DNA from: an uncultured Mycoplasmatota bacterium
GTDB taxonomy: Bacteria > Bacillota_I > Bacilli_A > RF39 > UBA660
Direction: 5' to 3'
NCBI GenBank assembly: GCA_946497145.1
Contig: CAMMJA010000002.1
Coordinates: 4,332-68,331, forward strand
DNA length: 64,000 bases
Position numbers and translations under genes: made by a program. The notes beneath the pieces were generated by a model. It worked only from the letters and a program-made list of their open reading frames with translations. It did not search any database and was not told where the DNA came from. Positions 2,676-64,000 of the stretch are shown in pieces. Numbering within the stretch: the stretch's first letter is position 1; each line of letters opens with the position of its first letter.

Positions 2676-3635
2676 TTAACCCATAATTTGTCCGCCGTTG
2701 TTGTGGATTACTTGTCCTGTTACATAACTAGAATCATCTGATGCCAAAAAAACAAAAGTAGGCGCCAACTCGTATGGCATGGCTCCACGTCGCATTGCGG
2801 CATCAGCCCCAAGAGATGGAATTTTTTCTTTTTGCCAACAAGCAGGTTGTAACGGAGTCCAAAAAAAGCCCGGAGCAATGGCATTGACTCTAATTTTTTT
2901 CTCAGCTAAATTTCGTGCCAAAGCACGCGTAAACCCTACGATTGCTCCTTTGGTAGCAACATAATCAATTAATTGCGGATCTCCAAAAAAAGTTGTGACC
3001 GACGTCATATTAATAATAGAACTATTCTCACTCATAAAAGGCAACGCTGCTTTTGTCAAATAGAACATTCCATAAACATTAACTTTCATCGTACGATCAA
3101 ACTGCTCATTGCTAATATCAGTCAATGTATCTTGTTGATATTGAACACCAGCATTATTCACCAAAACATCAATTTTTCCAAAGTTTCGAATCGTTTCTTG
3201 CACGATGTAAGAACAAAAAGCAGGATCTGTAATATCCCCAGATAAAAGCAAACAAGTTCCACCCAATTGTTCAATATACTTTTTTGTTTCCAGTGCATCG
3301 CGATGTTCATTTAAATAAGGAATGACTAAGGTTGCACCTTCTTTGGCAAAACAGATGGCTGCTGCTCTACCCAAACCACTATCTCCTCCTGTAATGATAG
3401 CCACTTTATTTTTTAGCTTACCACTTCCGATATAATTCGGATTATCAAAAACCGGTCTTGGCGTCATCAAATATTCCAAACCCGGTTGATTGGACTGTGA
3501 TTGTTCTGGTGCCATAATACGATACTTAGAATGTTTTACCCCATCCGAAAAACAGTACGTATAGCAATCAGAACCAAAGCAATAATCATATTTCATAGTT
3601 GTCCTCCTTTTCTCTATACTATATGCATAGACCAA
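2676..3635 (-). CDS. SDR-family oxidoreductase (YghA/YhdF-like)
   Basis: TGGDSGLGRA NAD(P)-binding motif, NNAG, and the QPGxExxMxPxP N-terminal signature of this subfamily. Start is uncertain and probably internal. Confidence 0.85.
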   Translation of the reverse strand: MVYAYSIEKRRTTMKYDYCFGSDCYTYCFSDGVKHSKYRIMAPEQSQSNQPGLEYLMTPRPVFDNPNYIGSGKLKNKVAIITGGDSGLGRAAAICFAKEGATLVIPYLNEHRDALETKKYIEQLGGTCLLLSGDITDPAFCSYIVQETIRNFGKIDVLVNNAGVQYQQDTLTDISNEQFDRTMKVNVYGMFYLTKAALPFMSENSSIINMTSVTTFFGDPQLIDYVATKGAIVGFTRALARNLAEKKIRVNAIAPGFFWTPLQPACWQKEKIPSLGADAAMRRGAMPYELAPTFVFLASDDSSYVTGQVIHNNGGQIMG

Positions 3636-30185: not shown

Positions 30186-30262
30186 TGGCGCCTCAACTAG
30201 GACTTGAACCTAGGACCCCTTGATTAACAGTCAAGTGCTCTAACCAACTGAGCTATTAAGGC
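30186..30262 (-). tRNA. tRNA-Asn (GUU)
   Basis: Minus-sense cloverleaf GCCTTAA...CTGTTAA...GGTTCAAGTCC...TTGAGGCGCCA with anticodon loop CU-GUU-AA and an encoded CCA. Confidence 0.9.
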
Positions 30263-36041: not shown

Positions 36042-36117
36042 TGGTGCTGGAAACAAGACTTGAACTTGCGACCTATCGCTTACGAGACGATTGCTCTACC
36101 GACTGAGCTATTCCAGC
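36042..36117 (-). tRNA. tRNA-Thr (CGU)
   Basis: Minus sense GCTGGAATAGCTCAGTCGGTAGAGC...CT-CGT-AA...GGTCGCAAGTTCAAGTCTTGTTTCCAGCACCA. Confidence 0.9.
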
Positions 36118-52126: not shown

Positions 52127-52504
52127 TTACACCTCAATAAAATTCATGGTAACATCTGTTCTTAACACAATCTTATAAGTAACAGGATCCATCTTCTTAG
52201 ATTTACCATCTAAAGGACCACCATAAACTTCTTTTATTACTCGATTACCATAATTGTCTGTAAACTTTAATTGAAACGAATTTTGATCATACAACATTTG
52301 TAACAATGCCATTTCTTCATCGTTTAGCGCATTCCAACCGCATACAACCTTTGCACGGTTTCTTCTTACTATGTCTCGGTGTAGGTATCCTAATGAATCA
52401 ATAAAACTATTCTCTAAATGCGTGTAAGTTGGAGAATAATTTTCAGGAGAAGGAGTTGGTAAATTAAACCATCCTCCTCCAATATTTGCTTCTAATAATG
52501 CCCT
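52127..52504 (-). CDS. small tail protein (distal-tail-protein position); no canonical start
   Basis: Frame is open from 52516. Protein-like sequence runs 64 codons upstream of the first ATG (52312). AAGGAGG-N7-AGG at 52504. Confidence 0.65.
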   Translation of the reverse strand, partial: RALLEANIGGGWFNLPTPSPENYSPTYTHLENSFIDSLGYLHRDIVRRNRAKVVCGWNALNDEEMALLQMLYDQNSFQLKFTDNYGNRVIKEVYGGPLDGKSKKMDPVTYKIVLRTDVTMNFIEV

Positions 52505-52505
52505 A

Positions 52506-54467
52506 TTATACCCTCCTTATAACTGTTGATTTTCCAAGTCGATGACCTTCTTCTTCAAAATCTGGATACGTTGCTCTAGCAAATTCACGACCATTTATTT
52601 CTAAAATAATATCACCAGTATCACGACTTTCCGTTTGAATATATGGCAAAATATCCATCATAGCGTCAGTAAAAGTTTGACGCATAATATTTTGAGGAGA
52701 AACAATTTCAGGGTTACTAGAGGCACCCGGGTACTCTCCAAATTGTCCGAATGTAGGTTTATAAGCAACCGTTCCCGAAGCAAAACGTGCTCCACCACCA
52801 CCGCCACCAAATGAGCCACCAACAAATGTTTGTAATTTTCTCGTAAAAAGTCCAAGCCAATTATCAATCCTTTTTGTGCTTATTTCTGATGGAGTTATAT
52901 CCATCTCAGCTTCGATCTGTGTTCTAAATTTTTTCCCGCTTACACTTTCAATTCTGCTTACCATATCATCAATTTTATCCTTTTGTTCCTGAGTATAACG
53001 AGTTCCATCTTTCAAGTCATCTAAATAGTGATTGTATTCTTCTGCAGCTCTATCAGAAAGCCAATTTATTCTTTCTTGATTATCACCGGCTTCTTCCATT
53101 TGCGATAATATACTATCAAATGTTTTTTCTCTTATCGACATTCTTTCCTCATCCTGTTTGTTAATTTGATCCAATAATTCCTTATATTCTTTTATTTGTG
53201 ATACTAATTTGGCAATGCCGAGTGCCTCAATAAGTAACAAAGCAGTTACTATTCCATACAATCCATAACTTCCGCCTGATACACCTAAAAGACTTGCAAT
53301 TGATCCTATTGCACTTCCTACTTTCCAACCAACAAACACGGTAGCTCCTAAACCAGCAATAGTTAATAATACCTCTTTATTTTCTACACACCAATTCCAT
53401 AAATCTTTCAATTTAAGGGCTACATCTTCTATCCATTGTTTCACATTTGGATCTAATTCAATGTTTGCAAGATCAGAAAACGGATTATCTACTTTTTCAT
53501 CAGCGAAACCTCCTAAATTGTCCATTGATAAGTTAGTGATTTCATCTAATGACGTAAGTTGTTTATTTAATTCTTTTGTCGCTTGAGTCGTTCCTTTAAT
53601 ACTTTTAGTTGCCTTATTACTAGCTCTAGCAATATAGTCAATACCAGTAAATGCTTTGACAAAAACATTTACATAACCGATCAACTTCGAAATTAGGTTA
53701 GTAATAAATGTCAATACTGGCTCTAACATAGCACCGAAGCTTACCCAGTTGTTCGTTATTTTATTACTTAACTCTGTGTCATAACTTAAATAAGAACTTG
53801 CAGCTCTAGAAACAACTCTCCAAATGGACTGTATTCCAAACAAAGATAGTGCAAACCTTTTTACACTCGCTATGGATCTATCAAAACCATTTCTAATTCC
53901 TTCAGTCATATTTTGGAAAACGTTTTTTGTATCATTGGCAGACTTTTTAATATCTTTAATAGAAGACGATGCCTTTTTTATATATGTTTTATCTCCTACT
54001 TGGAATGGTTTCCCTTCGGGAATTTTTCCTATACTAGACCATGTATTGATGTATTCTTTGGTTTCATTTGCCACTTTTTTAGTTTCTTCTTTTGTTTTTG
54101 CTGTACTAGAATAAATTTTATTATATGCCTCTTGAACCTTTTGTAATGCAGTAGATAATTGGTCCATACGCTGACTTTCTTTTAAATACGTATCATCTGC
54201 GCCAGCATTATTGTAAATTTTAACTCCAGTATCGGTAGTCCATTGTCCACCTGTCGGCATTTTATACAAAACGTCTCTCTGTTCATCAATTTTTTTCTTT
54301 AAAAAAGAAAAGCTTTTTTGAAATCCAGAAGTATCTATTTTAGGTTTTATGACTGTAGAATCCTCTACCTCTTCTTTAACTCCCTTTACAATATTTTTTA
54401 CCTTATTAGCAGAGCTCTTCAATTTGGAGGTCAAATATTCTAATTCTATGCCATATTTCTCATTCCT
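52506..54467 (-). CDS. tape measure protein
   Basis: About 650 aa of coiled-coil, TM-like and G-rich segments, following the G/G-T chaperone genes. Start is either the TTG at 54434 (no SD) or GAGGG-N7-AGG at 54467. Confidence 0.85.
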   Translation of the reverse strand, partial: RNEKYGIELEYLTSKLKSSANKVKNIVKGVKEEVEDSTVIKPKIDTSGFQKSFSFLKKKIDEQRDVLYKMPTGGQWTTDTGVKIYNNAGADDTYLKESQRMDQLSTALQKVQEAYNKIYSSTAKTKEETKKVANETKEYINTWSSIGKIPEGKPFQVGDKTYIKKASSSIKDIKKSANDTKNVFQNMTEGIRNGFDRSIASVKRFALSLFGIQSIWRVVSRAASSYLSYDTELSNKITNNWVSFGAMLEPVLTFITNLISKLIGYVNVFVKAFTGIDYIARASNKATKSIKGTTQATKELNKQLTSLDEITNLSMDNLGGFADEKVDNPFSDLANIELDPNVKQWIEDVALKLKDLWNWCVENKEVLLTIAGLGATVFVGWKVGSAIGSIASLLGVSGGSYGLYGIVTALLLIEALGIAKLVSQIKEYKELLDQINKQDEERMSIREKTFDSILSQMEEAGDNQERINWLSDRAAEEYNHYLDDLKDGTRYTQEQKDKIDDMVSRIESVSGKKFRTQIEAEMDITPSEISTKRIDNWLGLFTRKLQTFVGGSFGGGGGGARFASGTVAYKPTFGQFGEYPGASSNPEIVSPQNIMRQTFTDAMMDILPYIQTESRDTGDIILEINGREFARATYPDFEEEGHRLGKSTVIRRV

Positions 54468-54834
54468 ATATTATCCCTCTCTTCTTTGCCTTTTCTATTA
54501 AAAAATCAGGCATTTTATATCTTTTTTTAGGCGGATACAGCTCAGGGCTTGCCTCTTCTGGAGTTTTAGGAAACTTATCACTAAATACTCTCCCTATTAA
54601 CACTGCATGCTTCCACAATTCGTAAGCCAATCCTTTGTTATAATTTTCTATGGTATTGATTAGTTCAAAAAGTGTCATATCATACATGTTTTCATACAAC
54701 AAACCTCTTTGCAACCCCAACTTATATAGTTGCTCTATAAAACTTCTAACGCCTCGTTCACTTTCGATAATATCTTCTCTTGAGCATGTTGTTTCATCTC
54801 TTTGGTCTGTTCTACATGCTCTTTTTTCAAAAAA
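54466..54834 (-). CDS. tail assembly chaperone T extension (-1 frameshift product G-T)
   Basis: The -1 frame is open from the slippery site through ORF 54466..54720. Confidence 0.7.
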   Translation of the reverse strand, partial: FFEKRACRTDQRDETTCSREDIIESERGVRSFIEQLYKLGLQRGLLYENMYDMTLFELINTIENYNKGLAYELWKHAVLIGRVFSDKFPKTPEEASPELYPPKKRYKMPDFLIEKAKKRGII

Positions 54835-55134: not shown

Positions 55135-55163
55135 AAAAAAGGGGCATAGTTGCCTATGACCCT
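55135..55163 (-). terminator. terminator after the major tail gene
   Basis: Minus sense GGG-U-CAUAG-GCAA-CUAUG-CCC(C) followed by U6. Overlaps the stop codon. Confidence 0.65.
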
Positions 55164-55615
55164 ATTGGTATTGTTTTTTCTGGTTCTCCAATTGGATTTA
55201 ACGTCATGCTAAATCCTAGCAAATCGCCAGTACTTCCACCTTTGATCATAGTAGTAACTTTACTTTTAAATGAAATTGTAATTCCGTTTGAGTAAGTTAA
55301 CTTCCAAAATACTGGTGTATCGTCATCTTCTAAATCACTGGCTAATTTAATGTTAGATTCAGCAGTCGGATCTTCCATGTTAAATTCAAAAGTATATTTT
55401 TGTACATCTTGTAAACCTGGAATGGAAGTTTTATATTTTTTGTTATCCATGGTTGTGGTTTCTATGTCCTCTGGTTCACTTCCGATGTCCGGAACCTGTG
55501 TGATTCCCTTTATTTGAGTATATTGTCCATCTGACGTTGAGCTATATTCTAGTTTAGTACCAGAAAATGAATGATAATTTAATTGTTCTTCCCTATTTGA
55601 TTCCTCCTTAAACAA
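55154..55615 (-). CDS. major tail protein (TP901-1/phi13-like)
   Basis: IKGITQVPDIGSEPEDIETTTMDNKKYKTSIPGL resembles this family. The TTG at 55615 lies upstream of the SD. The alternative start is AAGGAGG-N8-AGG at 55594. Confidence 0.85.
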   Translation of the reverse strand: MFKEESNREEQLNYHSFSGTKLEYSSTSDGQYTQIKGITQVPDIGSEPEDIETTTMDNKKYKTSIPGLQDVQKYTFEFNMEDPTAESNIKLASDLEDDDTPVFWKLTYSNGITISFKSKVTTMIKGGSTGDLLGFSMTLNPIGEPEKTIPIGS

Positions 55616-55979: not shown

Positions 55980-56482
55980 TTTATTACCTCCTTTAACGCC
56001 TTACCTGTATTTTTTTTATAGTTGTTGATATTTTTATTTAGTGCTGGACGAAAATGTGGTTTAGCTGGTTGAGCGTAAGCGACATAGAACTCATTACCGT
56101 TTATTACTATTTTTCTCCCTATTGCACGATTTACAGATTTAACAGGCACAAACCAATACTGATACCCACTTTCGATAAACGTTTTAGTATGTCCAATATG
56201 TGGCTCTAAAGCATAAATACCTGTACCATTTTCTATCATGCGTCCAACAGCATATCCATCGCTAGTCAAATCAGTATATACCGAAGTTTTTATGCTATCA
56301 CTGTTCACTTCTGTGTCGCTTATTTTTATACTAGAGATATACTCACCACTTTTAGCAGGTGCATATTGTATAACATCCTCCCATATTTGTTTAGCTGTCT
56401 CTCGTTGAGATTCAACTAGTTGCTTTGGTAAGGTGTCAATTATTTTCGACACATCTATAACCATCTTTTCAAATGATTTCAT
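55976..56482 (-). CDS. HK97 gp10-family head-tail joining protein
   Basis: APAKSGEYISSIK...ENGTGIYA...KPHFRPAL is typical of HK97 gp10. Confidence 0.78.
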   Translation of the reverse strand: MKSFEKMVIDVSKIIDTLPKQLVESQRETAKQIWEDVIQYAPAKSGEYISSIKISDTEVNSDSIKTSVYTDLTSDGYAVGRMIENGTGIYALEPHIGHTKTFIESGYQYWFVPVKSVNRAIGRKIVINGNEFYVAYAQPAKPHFRPALNKNINNYKKNTGKALKEVIK

Positions 56483-56811
56483 ATTCGCTCGATATCCACT
56501 CTGCTATCTGTAACGGAAATGATTTTATAAATCACTCCATTAACAAATATAAAATACTTGCTAACATTATCTTTTTTGTTATTAACTTTGGTTAATAAAA
56601 ATTTTTCTAAATCTTTTAGTGGACTCGAAATGCGTTTTACATTAACCAAATTTGATCCATAAATACTCGCTGACACCTCATCGTTTAAATATTGCGACTG
56701 TACCTTATATTTTTGAATAAGAGTATATTCAGCAACAACTCTCGCGCCATTAGGATCTTTGGAATAATTGGCCTTTTTTAATTCTACGGTTTCTAAATAT
56801 CTAAGTAACCT
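56479..56811 (-). CDS. head closure/head-tail adaptor protein (SPP1 gp16-like); no canonical start
   Basis: Protein-like frame is open from 56817 and the only canonical start is a GTG at 56676. AGG at 56811 overlaps the upstream TAG. Confidence 0.6.
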   Translation of the reverse strand, partial: RLLRYLETVELKKANYSKDPNGARVVAEYTLIQKYKVQSQYLNDEVSASIYGSNLVNVKRISSPLKDLEKFLLTKVNNKKDNVSKYFIFVNGVIYKIISVTDSRVDIERI

Positions 56812-57124
56812 AAAAGATCACTCGCTTCCCATTTTTGATAATATTATTTCGCATTTTTTCTATGTTATCTTCAAAAGAAATACTATGACCACTTTCAGAA
56901 ATGGAACTGGAACCTTCAGCACCTCTTCGTAAATACTCAGCAATAACACATTGACTGATCTCTGGTTCTAAAGCAGATAAACTCTTTCTATTAGAAATAG
57001 ATAAAGCCACGCTAGATACGTTATCAATAATTTCTCGCAAAGTATCAACATCGTCTCGATAATTGTCGGCTAAATTACGAGTTACATTGTCTAAAATCTT
57101 TCTTTTGATTTCATCTTCTGTCAT
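56810..57124 (-). CDS. head-tail connector (gp6/gp15-like)
   Basis: 104 aa in the position after the capsid gene. DNVSSVALSIS...AEYLRRGAEG is connector-like. Confidence 0.72.
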   Translation of the reverse strand: MTEDEIKRKILDNVTRNLADNYRDDVDTLREIIDNVSSVALSISNRKSLSALEPEISQCVIAEYLRRGAEGSSSISESGHSISFEDNIEKMRNNIIKNGKRVIF

Positions 57125-57339: not shown

Positions 57340-58329
57340 TTAAGCATCGGCTCTAGTATAGTATGTCTCAGTACTGTCAAACTCCGCGCTAGATGGAACT
57401 TGTGTATATACACCAAAATCATAAGTGTAATAAGTAGTTCCTGAAGCAAATTCTTCGATTTCCGCTTTGGTGTAAACATAATCACAGTCATACAAAATAA
57501 CTTCTGGAACTAATGCTTGACCGCCTGAGTATGCAAATAATTCAAGTGCAATAGCGTCGTCAAATGGAATTTTTTCAGCATCATATTCGCTTAAATAATT
57601 TGGCAATGCAATTGCTTCTTCTTTTAACATAACCATGGCTGGTACATCGCTAGGCATACGGTTTGATTCATATGTGATCACTGACTGATACATACCAATT
57701 GCTCCATTTGATGGTACAGTTCCGTTAGGTAGACTATCTAAATAATCTTTCAATTCAGTTTTGTAAGTAGTGTTAACTACTAATGCTAACAAATCTTCAT
57801 CTACGCCATCAATGAAATCGTTATTGGTCACTTTGGCTGTACTGATCAATCTGTCAACAATCTTTTTAACTGTATCTCCAGATCCTCTAGCAACTTGAAT
57901 ACCTGCATCACGTGCAATTCGAAAGAATTTTCTATCATAATAAGTTTTGATGACATCTTTGGCGTTTTTACTTCTCTTTTGTGCCATACCATCAATACCA
58001 TATAGTTTTAGATCCTTTTCTTGTAATTCTTCGATGATTTCTTTGTCATCATCAATATTTACAGTTACAGGTTTAGCTTTTACTTGGTTTCCTTTGCCTT
58101 GTGCTCTAGCCGTTCCCTTGTCTTGTAACTTAGCATTAGCAAATCTTTTATATTCTACACTACCAGTAGTAGGATCCCCGCTACCATTCTTCGCTTTCAA
58201 TGCCTCGCTAACACATCCTGATTGAATATTTTCAATCACTCCGTCTAATGTTTCTGCTAAATTATCCATAACATCTGGTGTTAGATAATCAGCAATGTTT
58301 AATGAACTTTGTCTTGCCCTATCAATCAT
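57340..58329 (-). CDS. major capsid protein
   Basis: 329 aa following the scaffold gene. The ATG at 58329 abuts the SD with zero spacing. In-frame AGG at 58320 sits 9 nt after the SD. Confidence 0.86.
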   Translation of the reverse strand: MIDRARQSSLNIADYLTPDVMDNLAETLDGVIENIQSGCVSEALKAKNGSGDPTTGSVEYKRFANAKLQDKGTARAQGKGNQVKAKPVTVNIDDDKEIIEELQEKDLKLYGIDGMAQKRSKNAKDVIKTYYDRKFFRIARDAGIQVARGSGDTVKKIVDRLISTAKVTNNDFIDGVDEDLLALVVNTTYKTELKDYLDSLPNGTVPSNGAIGMYQSVITYESNRMPSDVPAMVMLKEEAIALPNYLSEYDAEKIPFDDAIALELFAYSGGQALVPEVILYDCDYVYTKAEIEEFASGTTYYTYDFGVYTQVPSSAEFDSTETYYTRADA

Positions 58330-59332: not shown

Positions 59333-60804
59333 TCTAACTCCTCTATCAGAAAATAATGTTTATCGCCTTTGGTATAATAATCTCTTGTAATAAACTTCAT
59401 ACCATATTGATATAGAACTTCTGCCTCATTTGACATTTGATTATATTCTAACATGTTTCTAGCTTTTTTGCTACCTTTTACATAAAAGAAAACATTTGCT
59501 TTGGAATTATATCCTGGTTTTAAAGAATACGCTTCAAAAGATTTTGCCTCATATACTTCTCCGACTGGATGTTGTGAAATAACAGTCTGTAATGCATGAT
59601 TATCTACCTGCAAAACTCTTGTGATAAATTCATCATTTTTGGAATTGTAGAAAGGTTGCTTATTTAGCGCTGTATATAAGTTTTTAACTAATCTTCTTTC
59701 TTTTCGATTTAATCTTTCTCCTCTATACATTTTTCTATTGATATCATAGAAATCGGCACTCTCCCATTTATTAATAGCGCTTTTTTCATTCCAATTCATA
59801 AGACTTTTATTTAACTTATCCCTAGTCATATCTAATTGATATGTTACTGTGCTTCTACACCAGTGAAAGTGATTGTTGATTGGTGGTAAATTCGCGCCTG
59901 CAACAAGACCAAATATTTTATAATTTACAATTCGTCCATCATCGTAACTATATCGTTGAAAAGTGTTCCAATCGTTCACAGAAAAAACTTGCTCGTCAAG
60001 CGATCTGCACATTTCCGTAGTTCTCTGATCTATTTCTGCTATAAATCTTACCTTGGCATTTTTGTCAACTTTTTTATAACCTTCCACCAAAGCATTGTTT
60101 ACTAATGATGTTACTTGTAGTTCTAAATCCCCACTAATTTTATCACCGTTAATATTCAAGTAACGTTTCCTTTGAGCATTTAAAATTGAGTCGTATATTG
60201 TTTTGTCGACAACCGGTTTACGGTCTTGTTGAATATCTATAACTGCTTGGCGATAAATTTGATCAGCATTGCTTAACATTGTAGCTTCAACATAATCATT
60301 CCAAATGTATCCCTTAGGATTAGGAAGTGCAAGCAACGATAACAACAAATAGTTAGGTAATCTACTAGGTTTCGATCTGTCGTTAGTTGCTCGATACACT
60401 TCTTCCTGCCCTTGTGCATATTTTGTATTTGCTACCTCATTAAACAATTTGTTTTCGTACTTATCTAGTTTAGAATGGTTTTTCACATAGGTTTTGTAAA
60501 TCAATAAGTGTAATATTTCAAAATTTTTTACTCTACTCCTATTATGAATAGAATTTGCTAAATACTTGAAATATCCACTTAACAATCCGTCATCAGACCA
60601 TTCTTCAATCAATAAATCGATTTTTTTCTTTTGTTCTGATGCGGCATATTGAAAAATATTATCTTTGTTTATATCCAGCGAATCAAAAATTGCTTGAATA
60701 TCATTTTTTAACCGTTGATTTAGTTTTATATATTTCGTTTTAAACTGTTTTAGTAACTTGTCAGTGTCATTCCATCTCGTTTGTAGTATCTGCTCTCTCG
60801 TCAT
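59329..60804 (-). CDS. minor head protein (SPP1 gp7/Mu F-like) fused to a C-terminal ADP-ribosyltransferase domain
   Basis: Central NxHxxCRS-type motif (PINNHFHWCRST). The C-terminus carries YDINRKMYRG, ITRV, SFEAYS and NEAEV, matching an R / S-x-S / E-x-E layout. Confidence 0.85.
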   Translation of the reverse strand: MTREQILQTRWNDTDKLLKQFKTKYIKLNQRLKNDIQAIFDSLDINKDNIFQYAASEQKKKIDLLIEEWSDDGLLSGYFKYLANSIHNRSRVKNFEILHLLIYKTYVKNHSKLDKYENKLFNEVANTKYAQGQEEVYRATNDRSKPSRLPNYLLLSLLALPNPKGYIWNDYVEATMLSNADQIYRQAVIDIQQDRKPVVDKTIYDSILNAQRKRYLNINGDKISGDLELQVTSLVNNALVEGYKKVDKNAKVRFIAEIDQRTTEMCRSLDEQVFSVNDWNTFQRYSYDDGRIVNYKIFGLVAGANLPPINNHFHWCRSTVTYQLDMTRDKLNKSLMNWNEKSAINKWESADFYDINRKMYRGERLNRKERRLVKNLYTALNKQPFYNSKNDEFITRVLQVDNHALQTVISQHPVGEVYEAKSFEAYSLKPGYNSKANVFFYVKGSKKARNMLEYNQMSNEAEVLYQYGMKFITRDYYTKGDKHYFLIEELE

Positions 60805-62284
60805 CTACTTCTTCCTCTTTTTCAGCATTTGTATTATCTCCAAACTTTTGAGTTCTTTCCAAGTTTTTATTAAAATTCTCGTCTGTTTCCTCGTCTCTTA
60901 ACGCTATTTCACTTTCGCTGTCCAGCTCGTACGGCAAATGATCAATCACTGTTTTATCGCTTAATAGGCCACGTAGTTTTAACCAGCCATCAATAATTTC
61001 TTGATTATTCTGTGGCAAATTACGAGTTAGGATAATTTCAATATCTCTAAAATCATACTTAGTATTCTTTTTAGTATTTATTCTATCTACAATATTTTCC
61101 CACATTCTTAACAATTCTTTTTTGAACAATTTATCTGCTTGAATCAATACTTGCTCTAAAGGGAAAAATTTCTTTTCTAAGGCGCTTGAATTATCGGCAT
61201 TAGTAAAACCTTGATCTGTTACGTTTGGTACCCCAGAAATCATAAGAGCCATATCTAAACACGTCTTTTTGTGATTTTCGCTGGCTGTATCATTGACATT
61301 CTTGATTATCCAGTCTATATCGCCATCACTTTTATCAGGTGTATAAAACACCTTTGCATTTAATATTAAATTATCTTCTTCTATTCTAGCGGGATTTTGA
61401 ATCATTTTTACATTTCCAAATTCGTCAACAACAATATTTCCGTTTTCGTCTCTTTCTTCTATCATCACTTCATTTTGAGGTTTATAACCGATTACTTTTA
61501 ATTTTGCATCGTCGTTGTATTGAAAAGTATTAGCGTTATTTCGAATAACTTGTTCGTACTTATCTATCAAAGTAATAACATTTTCAAATATTCCTATGTT
61601 ATCAGGGTTTTCAACTACTAAAGCAGGAATAAGCAACCATTTAACATCTTGCCTTTCGTCCTCTAATTCCTTAAAATTTTCCGATTGTAGTTTTTCATTA
61701 ACATAGTATCTTTTAAAATCTTCAGTAATCAATTCAACTTTATTCACAGCATTTCCGTTTGCATCAGTTTCTTCCCAACTTCTTAATACTCCAATCAATT
61801 GTCTTGGAGTTGAATAATCCCAAATACCAATCGTGTTCAATGCACTAGTATGTGCATATACGATCTCGTTGTCACTATTTTCATAAAGCAAACCATATCC
61901 TGCTCGCATTATTAAGTAATCCTTGGCTACATCATAAAAAAAACTAGAATTATCATTGTAGTCTTTAATATAATCTAAAATCACTTGAAATGAATCGGCG
62001 TCGTTATTTTCTCCAAATATTTTATCAAAAAATTTTTGTATAATATTTCTTTTTATCTCGTTTTCTTCTTTCTTTACTTTATAAACAGGATCTTTACCTG
62101 CAAAATAACCGCAGGCAATATTGGAAATGTAATATTCAAGAGCGATTTTAACGTCACTTAAATCTTTTTTTCTAGTATATCTGTTATATAATTCTTTTCG
62201 CTCATTCCATTCTTTTTCTGCTTCATTCAATAATTGAGAAATATTTTCTTCTTTTTCTATATATTCTTTTGTATATTGTAACCT
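60767..62284 (-). CDS. portal protein (SPP1 gp6-like); no canonical start near the SD
   Basis: Portal-like sequence. Frame is open from 62302. AAGGAGG (62299-62293)-N8-AGG at 62284. The first canonical start is a TTG at 62230 without an SD. Confidence 0.86.
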   Translation of the reverse strand, partial: RLQYTKEYIEKEENISQLLNEAEKEWNERKELYNRYTRKKDLSDVKIALEYYISNIACGYFAGKDPVYKVKKEENEIKRNIIQKFFDKIFGENNDADSFQVILDYIKDYNDNSSFFYDVAKDYLIMRAGYGLLYENSDNEIVYAHTSALNTIGIWDYSTPRQLIGVLRSWEETDANGNAVNKVELITEDFKRYYVNEKLQSENFKELEDERQDVKWLLIPALVVENPDNIGIFENVITLIDKYEQVIRNNANTFQYNDDAKLKVIGYKPQNEVMIEERDENGNIVVDEFGNVKMIQNPARIEEDNLILNAKVFYTPDKSDGDIDWIIKNVNDTASENHKKTCLDMALMISGVPNVTDQGFTNADNSSALEKKFFPLEQVLIQADKLFKKELLRMWENIVDRINTKKNTKYDFRDIEIILTRNLPQNNQEIIDGWLKLRGLLSDKTVIDHLPYELDSESEIALRDEETDENFNKNLERTQKFGDNTNAEKEEEVDDERADTTNEME

Positions 62285-62297
62285 ACTATTCTCCTCC

Positions 62298-63707
62298 TTA
62301 AATTATTTTGGTGTATCCAAAACTCATGGTATTAGGATTGCTATTTTCGTAAACGCCTGTTGTACAATCGGGTGCATCATCATGTTCATTTTTTCCTTCA
62401 CGTTGATATTTTTTCATCGACTTTGCATATTCAGGCCATCTCGTTTCCCAATCAATGGGGAAAAAAACATTGTTCATAACTCCTGTACTGTTGGACAAGA
62501 TTCTAGCTTGTTTATTTTCCGATTGATGAAACCAATCTATTTTTGTATGATGATTCTTCCTTTCTTTCAACTCTCTGGTAACATTCCTAGCAAATCCACG
62601 ACCGCCGTTATTAGATTCAATTTTTGCGTAACCAACACGATCTTTAGTTAACATATCAGCAACCGCTGGTTCTGTAATTTCCATTGGGTCCTTTGTAAAA
62701 ATAATATCTATAACGTATTTTTGATTATTAAAGGAAACTCCATAATTCATTGAACATAAATAATCATCTCCTTCATCAGCCGTATCTGTATAGTTCATTA
62801 TATATTTAAAAGGTGGAACTTTCTCATACTGATATGTCATAAATTTACTGTACAAACGTCCTTTTACGTCAATTGGCTCTTGTTGATAATTGGCTTCAAC
62901 AATATCCTTATTCATATTTTTTATTTTGATGTCATAATCTTTGCGTGATAAAATTTCTTCACATAACATAGTTCCGTCTTCTTGTAACGCTTTATGTTTA
63001 ATTATCCTGACTAAATCACCAAATTCTTCTATAATTTTTCCTGCCAAATCGTTTGTAGCCCATCGAGTCATAAAAACAATAACTTTCCAATTTCCTTCCA
63101 GACGAGAAAGCATAGTGTTATTAAACCAATCCCAAATTTTCTCTAATGTTCGCTCGTTGTATACTTCTTCAGCACTTTTAATAACATCATCAATTATCAA
63201 TATATTAGCACCAAATCCAGTAGCCGTTCCTCCCGGAGATGTAGCCAAATAATTTTTTTGTTTACTTCCTCTTAATGCCCATAAGTTAGCGCTTGCCTCT
63301 CCATACTTGATCATAGTTTCAGGAAATATATCGTTATACACCAATCTAGTTTTATCAATCTTTATTTCGGATATCGTATCTCTAACTTGCCTTGCAAACA
63401 TAGTAGACAAGATTTCATTATATGATCCCGTCATAATCTTTAATTCTTTATTTTTTCCAAATAACCATTCACAAGTATTTTTACTAGTAAAACTCTTCCC
63501 GTGACGTGGTGGCTCATTTAAAATTAAAAATTTATGATTCATATCATTTTCAATAAAATCTTGTATTTCTTCACATATATTTTTTAGATATATCCTGTCA
63601 TCTTTATAAAAAGTAGGATATCTTAATCGGCAATAGTCATATAAATTTCTTCGTGCTAATTCTTTTTTTGCTTCAATCTGTATATATTTAGGTATTTTAC
63701 TTTCCAT
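62298..63707 (-). CDS. terminase large subunit
   Basis: Walker-A-like PPRHGKS, IIDD Walker B and a C-terminal nuclease region, in the position between terS and portal. Confidence 0.92.
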   Translation of the reverse strand: MESKIPKYIQIEAKKELARRNLYDYCRLRYPTFYKDDRIYLKNICEEIQDFIENDMNHKFLILNEPPRHGKSFTSKNTCEWLFGKNKELKIMTGSYNEILSTMFARQVRDTISEIKIDKTRLVYNDIFPETMIKYGEASANLWALRGSKQKNYLATSPGGTATGFGANILIIDDVIKSAEEVYNERTLEKIWDWFNNTMLSRLEGNWKVIVFMTRWATNDLAGKIIEEFGDLVRIIKHKALQEDGTMLCEEILSRKDYDIKIKNMNKDIVEANYQQEPIDVKGRLYSKFMTYQYEKVPPFKYIMNYTDTADEGDDYLCSMNYGVSFNNQKYVIDIIFTKDPMEITEPAVADMLTKDRVGYAKIESNNGGRGFARNVTRELKERKNHHTKIDWFHQSENKQARILSNSTGVMNNVFFPIDWETRWPEYAKSMKKYQREGKNEHDDAPDCTTGVYENSNPNTMSFGYTKII

Positions 63708-64000
63708 TAGCCAATCTTCTCAATTCTTCCTCATTCAAATTAGCATATGGATTAGATATGTTCCCGCTATGACTAAATTCTTGTTTGTCTTCCCAACCGA
63801 AGTTATTTTTCAAATTAAAAATAACACCTGTTGCATTAGGAAAAAATAATCTTTCTTCTGCGAATTTTTCGACTCTATTGCGGGCTTTTTTTATCGTGAG
63901 GAAAAATTTATCATCTTTGGAATAATTTAATAACGATTTTCTGTCCATATCCAAAGCCAACGCTAAACCACTCATTGTATATGGCATATGTTTTTCGTCG
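63697..64000 (-). CDS. terminase small subunit (may extend beyond the window)
   Basis: The HTH-like GLALALDMDRKSLLNY...IKKARNRVEKFAEERL is typical of terS. The frame is open to the window end. Confidence 0.75.
   Translation of the reverse strand, partial: DEKHMPYTMSGLALALDMDRKSLLNYSKDDKFFLTIKKARNRVEKFAEERLFFPNATGVIFNLKNNFGWEDKQEFSHSGNISNPYANLNEEELRRLANGK

Follow-up and report, generated by a model that had tools for sequence, protein, structure and literature searches.

The window analyzed, a stretch of 64,000 nucleotides (nt) of contig CAMMJA010000002.1 from an uncultured Mycoplasmatota bacterium (assembly GCA_946497145.1), is made up of bacterial chromosome (leuS, clpB, fhs and other genes) and, from about 43 kb on, of a prophage. 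The host belongs to the uncultured low-GC gut Bacilli; no species representative in GTDB has a LeuS more than 76% identical to that of the window. The head-closure (stopper) gene of the prophage overlaps the end of the head-tail adaptor gene, and has no canonical start codon at its head. We consider it quite probable that closure is a separate gene started at an AGG codon, being one of at least seven late genes of this phage headed in this way, and that such starts are decoded by an initiator-type tRNA with a CCU anticodon encoded by the phage. The prophage was compared with a sister phage present in a 44.8-kb Logan contig (L001; L119 is a longer excerpt of the same contig), the closure protein of which is 75% identical over the 110 codons counted from AGG. 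All junction and gene coordinates refer to the minus strand of the window.

AGG codons at the heads of late genes

The signal found at all seven heads is the same, and consists of a strong Shine-Dalgarno (SD) element, 7–9 nt, and AGG (Table 1). Orthologous AGG codons are found at six of the seven heads in L001, and at all seven in L119. Three of the AGG triplets are UAGG stop-start overlaps with the gene upstream, four follow intergenic SD elements. The two overlaps other than that of the closure gene read ATA_TAG_G and ATT_TAG_G, and allow no +1 re-pairing. A T precedes each of the seven AGG starts in the window, and six of seven in the sister phage; the resulting U at position -1 may pair with A37 of the initiator loop, or be a mere convenience of overlaps with TAG stops.

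Relatives of the major capsid protein start with ATG-GCA-AGA (MARQ.SLNI), and their start aligns to the AGG of the window; the same holds for the ATG starts of the relatives of the major tail protein (MEEE.NYH) and of the tape measure protein (MNEKYGIELE). The capsid starts picked by open reading frame (ORF) finders, an ATG in the window and a GTG in L001, sit within the extended SD (GGAGATGATT and GGAGAGTGATT, respectively), and the three "codons" preceding AGG (window 58318-58329; L001 4333-4344) are not conserved as protein, being MID in the window and VII in L001. In the major tail gene both phages feature AAGGAGG, 8 nt and AGG, followed by a conserved N-terminus (EEQLNYHSF...), and share no canonical start. 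The L001 gene, devoid of canonical starts for 48 codons past AGG, has been called at only 97 amino acids (aa). The first canonical start is located 18 codons 3' of AGG in the portal gene, and 64 codons into the phrog_1194 gene.

The usage of start codons was monitored by counting the in-frame codons found 5–20 nt 3' of a strong SD in long ORFs. On the sense strand of the window phage AGG and ATG were each found seven times, AGG making up only 0.38% of phage codons; in L001 the count is five for AGG and two for ATG. No AGG was found on either host strand. In 31 related phage loci (147 kb) ATG was counted 104 times and AGG never. Relatives with TerL proteins 77% and 70% identical feature neither a tRNA at the terminase position nor AGG starts.

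Within phage genes, AGG aligns with AGA, CGC or AAG of the orthologue. The host uses 261 ATG and 17 AGG per 10,000 codons, and one AGG falls at a conserved arginine of an S41 peptidase. This indicates that internal AGG is arginine. A reassignment of AGG to methionine, in the host or in the phage, was rejected, as internal AGG is rare and aligns with arginine or lysine codons.

Table 1. Position of late genes and of elements at the adaptor-closure junction, with putative AGG starts in the window and in the sister phage
Feature	Position	Strand	AGG in window	Details	AGG in sister phage
Small terminase gene, 3' part	64000..63697	minus		window ends at residue 28; aligned to L119 TerS	
Portal gene (phrog_64)	62284..60767	minus	62284-62282	GGAGG, 8 nt, AGG; 505 codons	458 (L001)
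Major capsid gene	58320..57340	minus	58320-58318		4342 (L001)
Head-tail adaptor gene (gp6 / SPP1 gp15-like)	57124..56810	minus		ATG start; 104 aa; ends ...KNGKRVIF-TAG	
Extended SD of closure gene	56816..56830	minus		GGGAAGCGAGTGATC; within last adaptor codons; four U's before AGG	
Putative AGG start codon of closure gene	56811-56809	minus	56811-56809	two-base overlap with adaptor TAG, forming UAGG	
Head-closure (stopper) gene	56811..56479	minus	56811-56809	110 codons from AGG; TGA stop at 56481-56479	
Major tail protein gene	55594..55154	minus	55594-55592	AAGGAGG, 8 nt, AGG	7098 (L001)
Tape measure gene	54467..52506	minus	54467-54465	UAGG with TAG stop of tail-chaperone frameshift ORF	8223 (L001)
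125-codon gene after tape measure (phrog_1194)	52504..52127	minus	52504-52502		9943 (L001)
Tail protein gene, 382 codons	49225..48077	minus	49225-49223	UAGG with TAG of upstream gene	17226 (L119)

The rest of the structural module of the prophage is intact, and the lysis/tail end adjoins host genes near 43-45 kb. Upstream of the tape measure gene, a T_TTT_TTG sequence followed by a run of A is found, in register, near the end of a 126-aa chaperone gene (54828-54834, the region extending to 54466). This is a canonical -1 frameshift site of tail assembly chaperones; the -1 frame is open to the stop codon of an 84-aa ORF, which overlaps the tape measure AGG (UAGG).

The adaptor-closure junction

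The adaptor protein matches PF05135 (E 2.6e-5) and phrog_132 (E 1.5e-12). Its gene ends with GTG ATC TTT TAG, the stop codon being located at 56812-56810. The frame of closure is +1 relative to that of the adaptor, and is closed upstream by a TGA (56820-56818). It then reads TCT TTT AGG TTA CTT AGA TAT TTA GAA... (SFRLLRYLETVELKK...), being open from two codons 5' of AGG, and its TGA stop overlaps the ATG of the next gene (ATGA). The first ATG, GTG or TTG in frame is the GTG at 56676, 45 codons into the gene, from which a 65-aa product would be made; an in-frame ATG is found four codons 5' of the upstream TGA. The first-pass annotation of the window had described the adaptor end, the +1 frame closed by TGA, the 45 codons lacking a start and the GTG as the only canonical one, and all of these are present. 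The range it had assigned to the element, 56676-56817, is right, the AGG proper residing at 56811-56809.

The closure family has at least 375 database matches, and the members listed are 108-135 aa long, mostly about 109. In all of the 34 homologues aligned a methionine is found at the column of the window AGG (M(Q/L)LRYL...). At about 33 related loci (from IMG/VR, GTDB genomes and metagenomes) the gene has an ordinary start at this position, mostly within a TTT TAATG stop-start overlap. When window and L001 are compared over the 45 codons upstream of GTG, the proportion of changed sites is 0.24 for non-synonymous (pN) and 0.75 for synonymous (pS) sites, the latter being saturated; in the other two frames pN exceeds pS over the same codons. 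These figures indicate that the 45 codons are under purifying selection. The junction is the same in L001 (GTG ATT TTT TAG G) and in a Logan contig 100% identical to the window (P0001). TTTTAGG is thus retained in L001 despite saturated synonymous divergence, and the C-terminal codons of the adaptor differ from those of L001 at synonymous sites only.

The name head-closure, used in the first-pass annotation, is borne out by the predicted fold. The AlphaFold model of the protein has a mean confidence (pLDDT) of 87.5, and its top Foldseek match is the SPP1 stopper gp16 in 7z4w (E 6.4e-4, TM-score 0.51); next come stoppers of other phages. The part encoded 5' of the GTG includes residues 7-41, which make up the first two long strands of this fold. 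No significant Pfam match was found for the protein. The gene order is adaptor, closure, phrog_5 neck protein.

It is very improbable that the closure gene is broken, with the 45 codons as a relic in a decaying prophage and either the 65-aa protein from GTG or no protein at all as product. Gene callers do output fragments of 65 and 69 aa (P0002, P0003), but selection has acted on the 45 codons since the two lineages split, with the rate of synonymous substitution saturated, and the segment missing from the short product includes the two strands mentioned above, in a structural module otherwise intact. Internal starts, moreover, differ between the two phages: the GTG at 56676 is ATA in L001, the TTG of L001 is TTA in the window, and no canonical or near-cognate internal start is conserved between them. 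Judging from the sequences compared, both lineages translate the N-terminus of closure, and their junction is of old date, which would exclude a sequencing error, a recent pseudogene and the 65-aa product.

A start at the upstream ATG, combined with read-through of the TGA, had also been envisaged in the first-pass annotation. The ATG is indeed there, the host is placed among Mollicutes-like Bacilli, and a gene caller gave exactly that product (MGSEW...) on the 589-nt P0001 contig. Read-through fails, however, as TGA is a stop in use, found at the end of 7 of 39 host genes and 3 of 22 phage genes, closure included, and all 184 tryptophan codons are TGG. The codons spanning from the upstream ATG to AGG, furthermore, carry changes relative to L001 that are non-synonymous in the closure frame, yet synonymous in the adaptor frame. 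Translation from this ATG, under code 4 or by suppression, is hardly credible. Genetic code 4 (TGA as tryptophan) was rejected on the same counts (10 of 61 genes ending in TGA, tryptophan always TGG). P0001 corresponds to window positions 56470-56835, approximately, and its public gene call used TGA as tryptophan (MGSEWSFRLL...ERIWNHLKRWL); the call illustrates how, on short contigs, the automatic choice of a genetic code goes astray when a start is missing.

The SD complement found in the last adaptor codons (GGGAAGCGAGUGAUC) pairs with the 3' tail of Firmicute-type 16S RNA at -15.1 kcal/mol, and ranks in the top 0.24% of the 24-nt windows on the phage sense strand. The equivalent duplex measures -12.9 in L001, and from -4 to -12.3 in relatives starting with ATG. 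The complement to the anti-SD ends directly at TTT, the spacing being 0, or 5 nt if measured from the base pairing C1535, vs. 3 for a prfB-like stimulator. The closure SD is stronger than those of the relatives, and fits frameshifting and initiation alike; SD strength was therefore dropped as a discriminator.

The first-pass annotation had offered two readings of the junction. In one, tRNA-Phe would slip by +1 on UUU_U at a slow UAG, in the manner of the release factor 2 gene prfB, and yield an adaptor-closure fusion. This fusion would be 214 aa long, and the upstream SD-like sequence would act as stimulator as in prfB. UUU_UAG_G forms a perfect shifty stop, correctly placed as to frame, at which tRNA-Phe can re-pair, an SD-like element is located just 5' of it, and the site is kept in L001. 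In some low-GC bacteria prfB features TTT_TGA with tRNA-Phe (PMC12421855), and tail genes of Listeria phages undergo +1 shifts at CCC_UGA (PMC5009743). Frameshifting is nonetheless decidedly improbable. SD and AGG head six other genes which have upstream either an intergenic region or ATA_TAG_G and ATT_TAG_G, and lack the upstream frame or the slippery codon that a shift requires. The relatives conserve a start, not a shift site, at the closure position. Conserved downstream RNA structures were not found at the junction (the consensus fold has -4.35 kcal/mol and no covariation), none of the 120 family members listed is an adaptor-closure fusion, and the SPP1 adaptor needs an unattached C-terminus, which enters the portal clip (PMC9701221). 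Since relatives read TTT TAATG, the TTT preceding the closure AGG is ancestral, and can be regarded as the inherited last phenylalanine codon of the adaptor.

The other reading, an AGG start with stop-start coupling at TAGG, is supported, and becomes one case of AGG starts used phage-wide, at a position to which the ATG of 34 of 34 homologues aligns. Because SD and AGG also head genes where no shift is possible, the closure junction is best read as a start site, and not as a shift site. As to conservation of the junction in related phages, TTTTAGG is kept in L001, and at the other loci, about 33, the start is an ordinary one. A degenerate TTTTAGG junction pattern retrieved only two chance matches from IMG/VR and GTDB genomes, one in a glutamine amidotransferase-like gene and one in a cyanobacterial spacer. 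No close phage relatives were found in the INPHARED collection by blastn or tblastn.

Further variation was observed within the closure family. In two loci (L009 and L022, about 2990-3005) adaptor and closure are in the same frame, separated by one TAA (TTT TAA ATG), and read-through of this single stop would fuse them. In a distant relative, IMGVR_UViG_3300031555_001485 (L016, about 2990-3010), the closure gene reads ATT-ATA at the place of the ATG (KK-I-I-LRFLE), and is not preceded by any canonical start; it seems to be an independent instance of a non-canonical start, AUU or AUA.

CCU tRNAs with initiator features

The sister phage carries a tRNA(UAU)-tRNA(CCU) gene pair, located 30 nt 5' of the small terminase gene (L119 2474-2550 and 2554-2628). 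The tRNA(CCU) was recovered from two samples (L119/L135; L136), and is labelled tRNA-Arg by ARAGORN. It features a C1xA72 mismatch, the G2:C71 and C3:G70 pairs and A73; its anticodon loop, CU-CCU-AA, is the initiator loop with A35 replaced by C, and A20, an arginine identity element, is missing. The 1:72 mismatch and these acceptor pairs are hallmarks of bacterial initiator tRNA and of methionine identity. ATG is the start of all early genes of this phage and of its two terminase genes, and AGG heads are found only downstream of the tRNA. The tRNA(UAU), which reads AUA (isoleucine), has a paired acceptor end and resides 3 nt 5' of the CCU tRNA (see also L135 9263-9339 and L136 1226-1302); its role is probably that of a normal elongator which supplements the tRNA supply of an AT-rich phage.

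A pattern search combining an initiator-type acceptor end with a CCU anticodon loop retrieved six IMG/VR contigs and six GTDB genomes. Five viral contigs and two prophages, the latter in metagenome-assembled genomes (MAGs) from the gut, form one group, unrelated to the window phage. The tRNA(CCU) of this second group (L120/L124 type) shares 84.4% identity, along its whole length, with the E. coli tRNA-Met gene located between argG and rimP (metY, an initiator), and features A11:U24 and a TTCAAAT T-loop. All early genes upstream of the tRNA start with ATG; portal, major head, neck/tail-completion and other genes downstream of it have SD and AGG, and the N-termini specified by these starts coincide with the starts of PHROG profiles. 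C1xA72, A73, G2:C71 and C3:G70 are found in 10 of 10 CCU tRNAs aligned, while position 1:72 is paired in three CAU elongators from the same loci.

CCU tRNAs of initiator type were detected in chromosomes as well, in Neobacillus piezotolerans (NZ_QNQT01000019.1; L131 73-148), in a Parcubacteria MAG (L126 41-115) and in an Alphaproteobacteria MAG (L130 140-216). They reside within tRNA clusters, not in obvious prophages, and their anticodon stems are of the classical type, with three G:C pairs in the former two and two in the latter. They may work as AGG initiators, be spare copies that have mutated, or reflect variants of the assembly. One viral contig (IMGVR_UViG_3300021387_001663; L122 1934-3164) features an array of nine tRNAs, one of which is a CCU initiator-type tRNA of the sister-phage subtype.

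The AGG starts of the window might also be read, with low efficiency, by the host initiator tRNA(CAU), aided by a strong SD and by reinitiation at UAGG, no dedicated tRNA being involved. We deem this unlikely. The closure SD is among the strongest on its strand, weak AUU and AUA starts with extended SDs are known in S. aureus and B. subtilis (PMC13009471), and no tRNA(CCU) is visible in the window. In E. coli, however, codons of the AGG class reach only some 0.01-1% of the initiation seen with AUG (bioRxiv 10.1101/063800), an implausibly low yield for capsid and tail-tube genes, and AGG heads the genes for the major capsid and major tail proteins, needed in hundreds of copies. The sister phage, which has the same six AGG heads, carries the matching tRNA, whereas relatives lacking the tRNA have no AGG starts. 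The decoder is thus most likely the initiator-type tRNA(CCU), which is present in the sister phage and in the second group, and which we infer for this prophage too. The expected site of the tRNA pair falls about 114-190 nt beyond base 64000, the last of the window.

Several points weigh against a phage initiator as decoder. No tRNA genes were found in the window from 42.5 to 64 kb, the expected site lying just past its end; the host tRNA-Asn(GTT) and tRNA-Thr(CGT) genes (30186-30262 and 36042-36117) reside in the chromosomal part. The L119-type tRNA has U11:A24 in place of A11:U24, and a diverged D arm. In the anticodon stems of all phage CCU tRNAs, A29:U41, G30:C40 and U31.G39 replace the three G:C pairs typical of classical initiators, a genuine departure from what defines the family. 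Elongators of the tRNA-Arg(CCU) type are often carried by phages, and the assignment as initiator rests, for this reason, on the acceptor end and on the likeness to initiators. Charging with methionine, formylation, and use by IF2 in the P site are predicted from sequence. Finally, this phage lineage is represented by only two genomes in the collections searched.

If AGG starts are served by the phage tRNA, the extended SD in the last adaptor codons would place the ribosome on UAGG, and the initiator-type tRNA(CCU) would pair with AGG and start the protein, its predicted charge being probably (formyl)methionine. Internal AGG would still be read as arginine by elongator tRNAs of the host. The UAGG overlap would also couple translation of closure to termination of the adaptor. 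Efficient translation of virion genes would hinge on the phage's own initiator tRNA, and the arrangement could serve the timing or the insulation of late-gene translation.

A broader proposal, which we regard as likely though somewhat less so than the reading of the closure gene itself, is that some temperate phages of low-GC gut Firmicutes possess a natural system of orthogonal initiation, in which the initiator anticodon is changed from CAU to CCU, and AGG takes the place of AUG as start of the portal, capsid, neck and tail genes. Efficient synthesis of virion proteins would then require expression of the phage tRNA. The system would have emerged in, or reached, two or more phage groups unrelated to each other, and been missed by gene callers and tRNA annotators.

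Related systems and implications

Initiation at a codon matching the altered anticodon of an initiator tRNA is an established principle in the laboratory. In E. coli, the engineered i-tRNA(CCU)/AGG combination outperformed the other orthogonal initiation pairs in most of the strains examined (bioRxiv 10.64898/2026.04.16.719103). The engineered orthogonal initiators (Jaschke lab; bioRxiv 10.64898/2026.04.16.719103; NAR 2025, PMC11744186) share with the phage system an initiator body with a CCU anticodon, AGG at normal SD spacing and a code otherwise unchanged. The phage system differs in being natural and wired to late structural genes, and in having one G:C pair in the anticodon stem, vs. three. 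In the full-text literature searched, natural AGG starts or phage CCU initiator tRNAs were not found, engineered systems only being described; coverage was incomplete, and an earlier description elsewhere is possible.

The analogue from nature that comes closest is the stop-codon recoding of late genes in crAss-like and Lak phages by phage suppressor tRNAs, reportedly described by Borges and colleagues (2022, Nat Microbiol). There, as here, a subset of mostly late or structural genes needs a tRNA of the phage, the gene of which resides at a module boundary. In those phages, in contrast, an in-frame stop is read during elongation, while in the present case the change concerns the start codon and leaves elongation as it is.

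In gut Bacilli of the RFN20 group (genus UBA7642), AGG has been reassigned from arginine to methionine along with a Met-type tRNA(CCU) (Shulgina & Eddy 2021, PMC8629427). Codon and anticodon are the same as in the phages, and so are the Met-type features of the tRNA (A73, G2:C71, C3:G70, no A20) and the provenance from low-GC Bacilli of the gut. In RFN20, however, AGG is the dominant internal methionine codon (209-235 per 10,000), and the tRNA that reads it is an elongator of tRNA-Arg descent. In the present case AGG within genes is arginine and rare, being found 17 times per 10,000 codons in the host, and is special at starts only; the tRNA, moreover, has C1xA72.

The UUU_UAG_G of the closure junction, with an SD-like element upstream, resembles the shifty stops of prfB (RF2) and of the Listeria phage tsh gene (CCC_UGA); unlike there, the signal recurs at heads where no shift is possible. 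The AUU and AUA starts of Firmicutes (infC, cvfC1, ccpN; PMC13009471) also combine a non-AUG start with extended SD pairing, to GAUCAC of the 16S tail. Those starts, in contrast, are weakly read by the normal initiator and serve down-tuning, while AGG is mismatched mid-codon and used for the most abundant virion proteins.

The apparent frameshift candidate thus becomes an ordinary stopper gene, presumably translated separately. There is an annotation problem, as capsid, tail, tape measure and neck genes are mis-called (at 65-97 aa, or with a start within the SD), and the tRNA is labelled tRNA-Arg. If the reading is correct, a start codon that has been reassigned, and has an initiator tRNA of its own, would here be seen in nature for the first time. 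To our knowledge, natural variation of the code is confined to stop or sense codons read in elongation, and private start codons to constructs of synthetic biology. The phages would provide ready-made orthogonal initiator tRNAs for the engineering of Firmicutes. Translation of late genes would be gated by a phage tRNA, and possible uses of such gating are the timing of expression, silencing in the lysogen, insulation from shut-off by the host or from defences that target tRNAs, or protection from exploitation by other elements.

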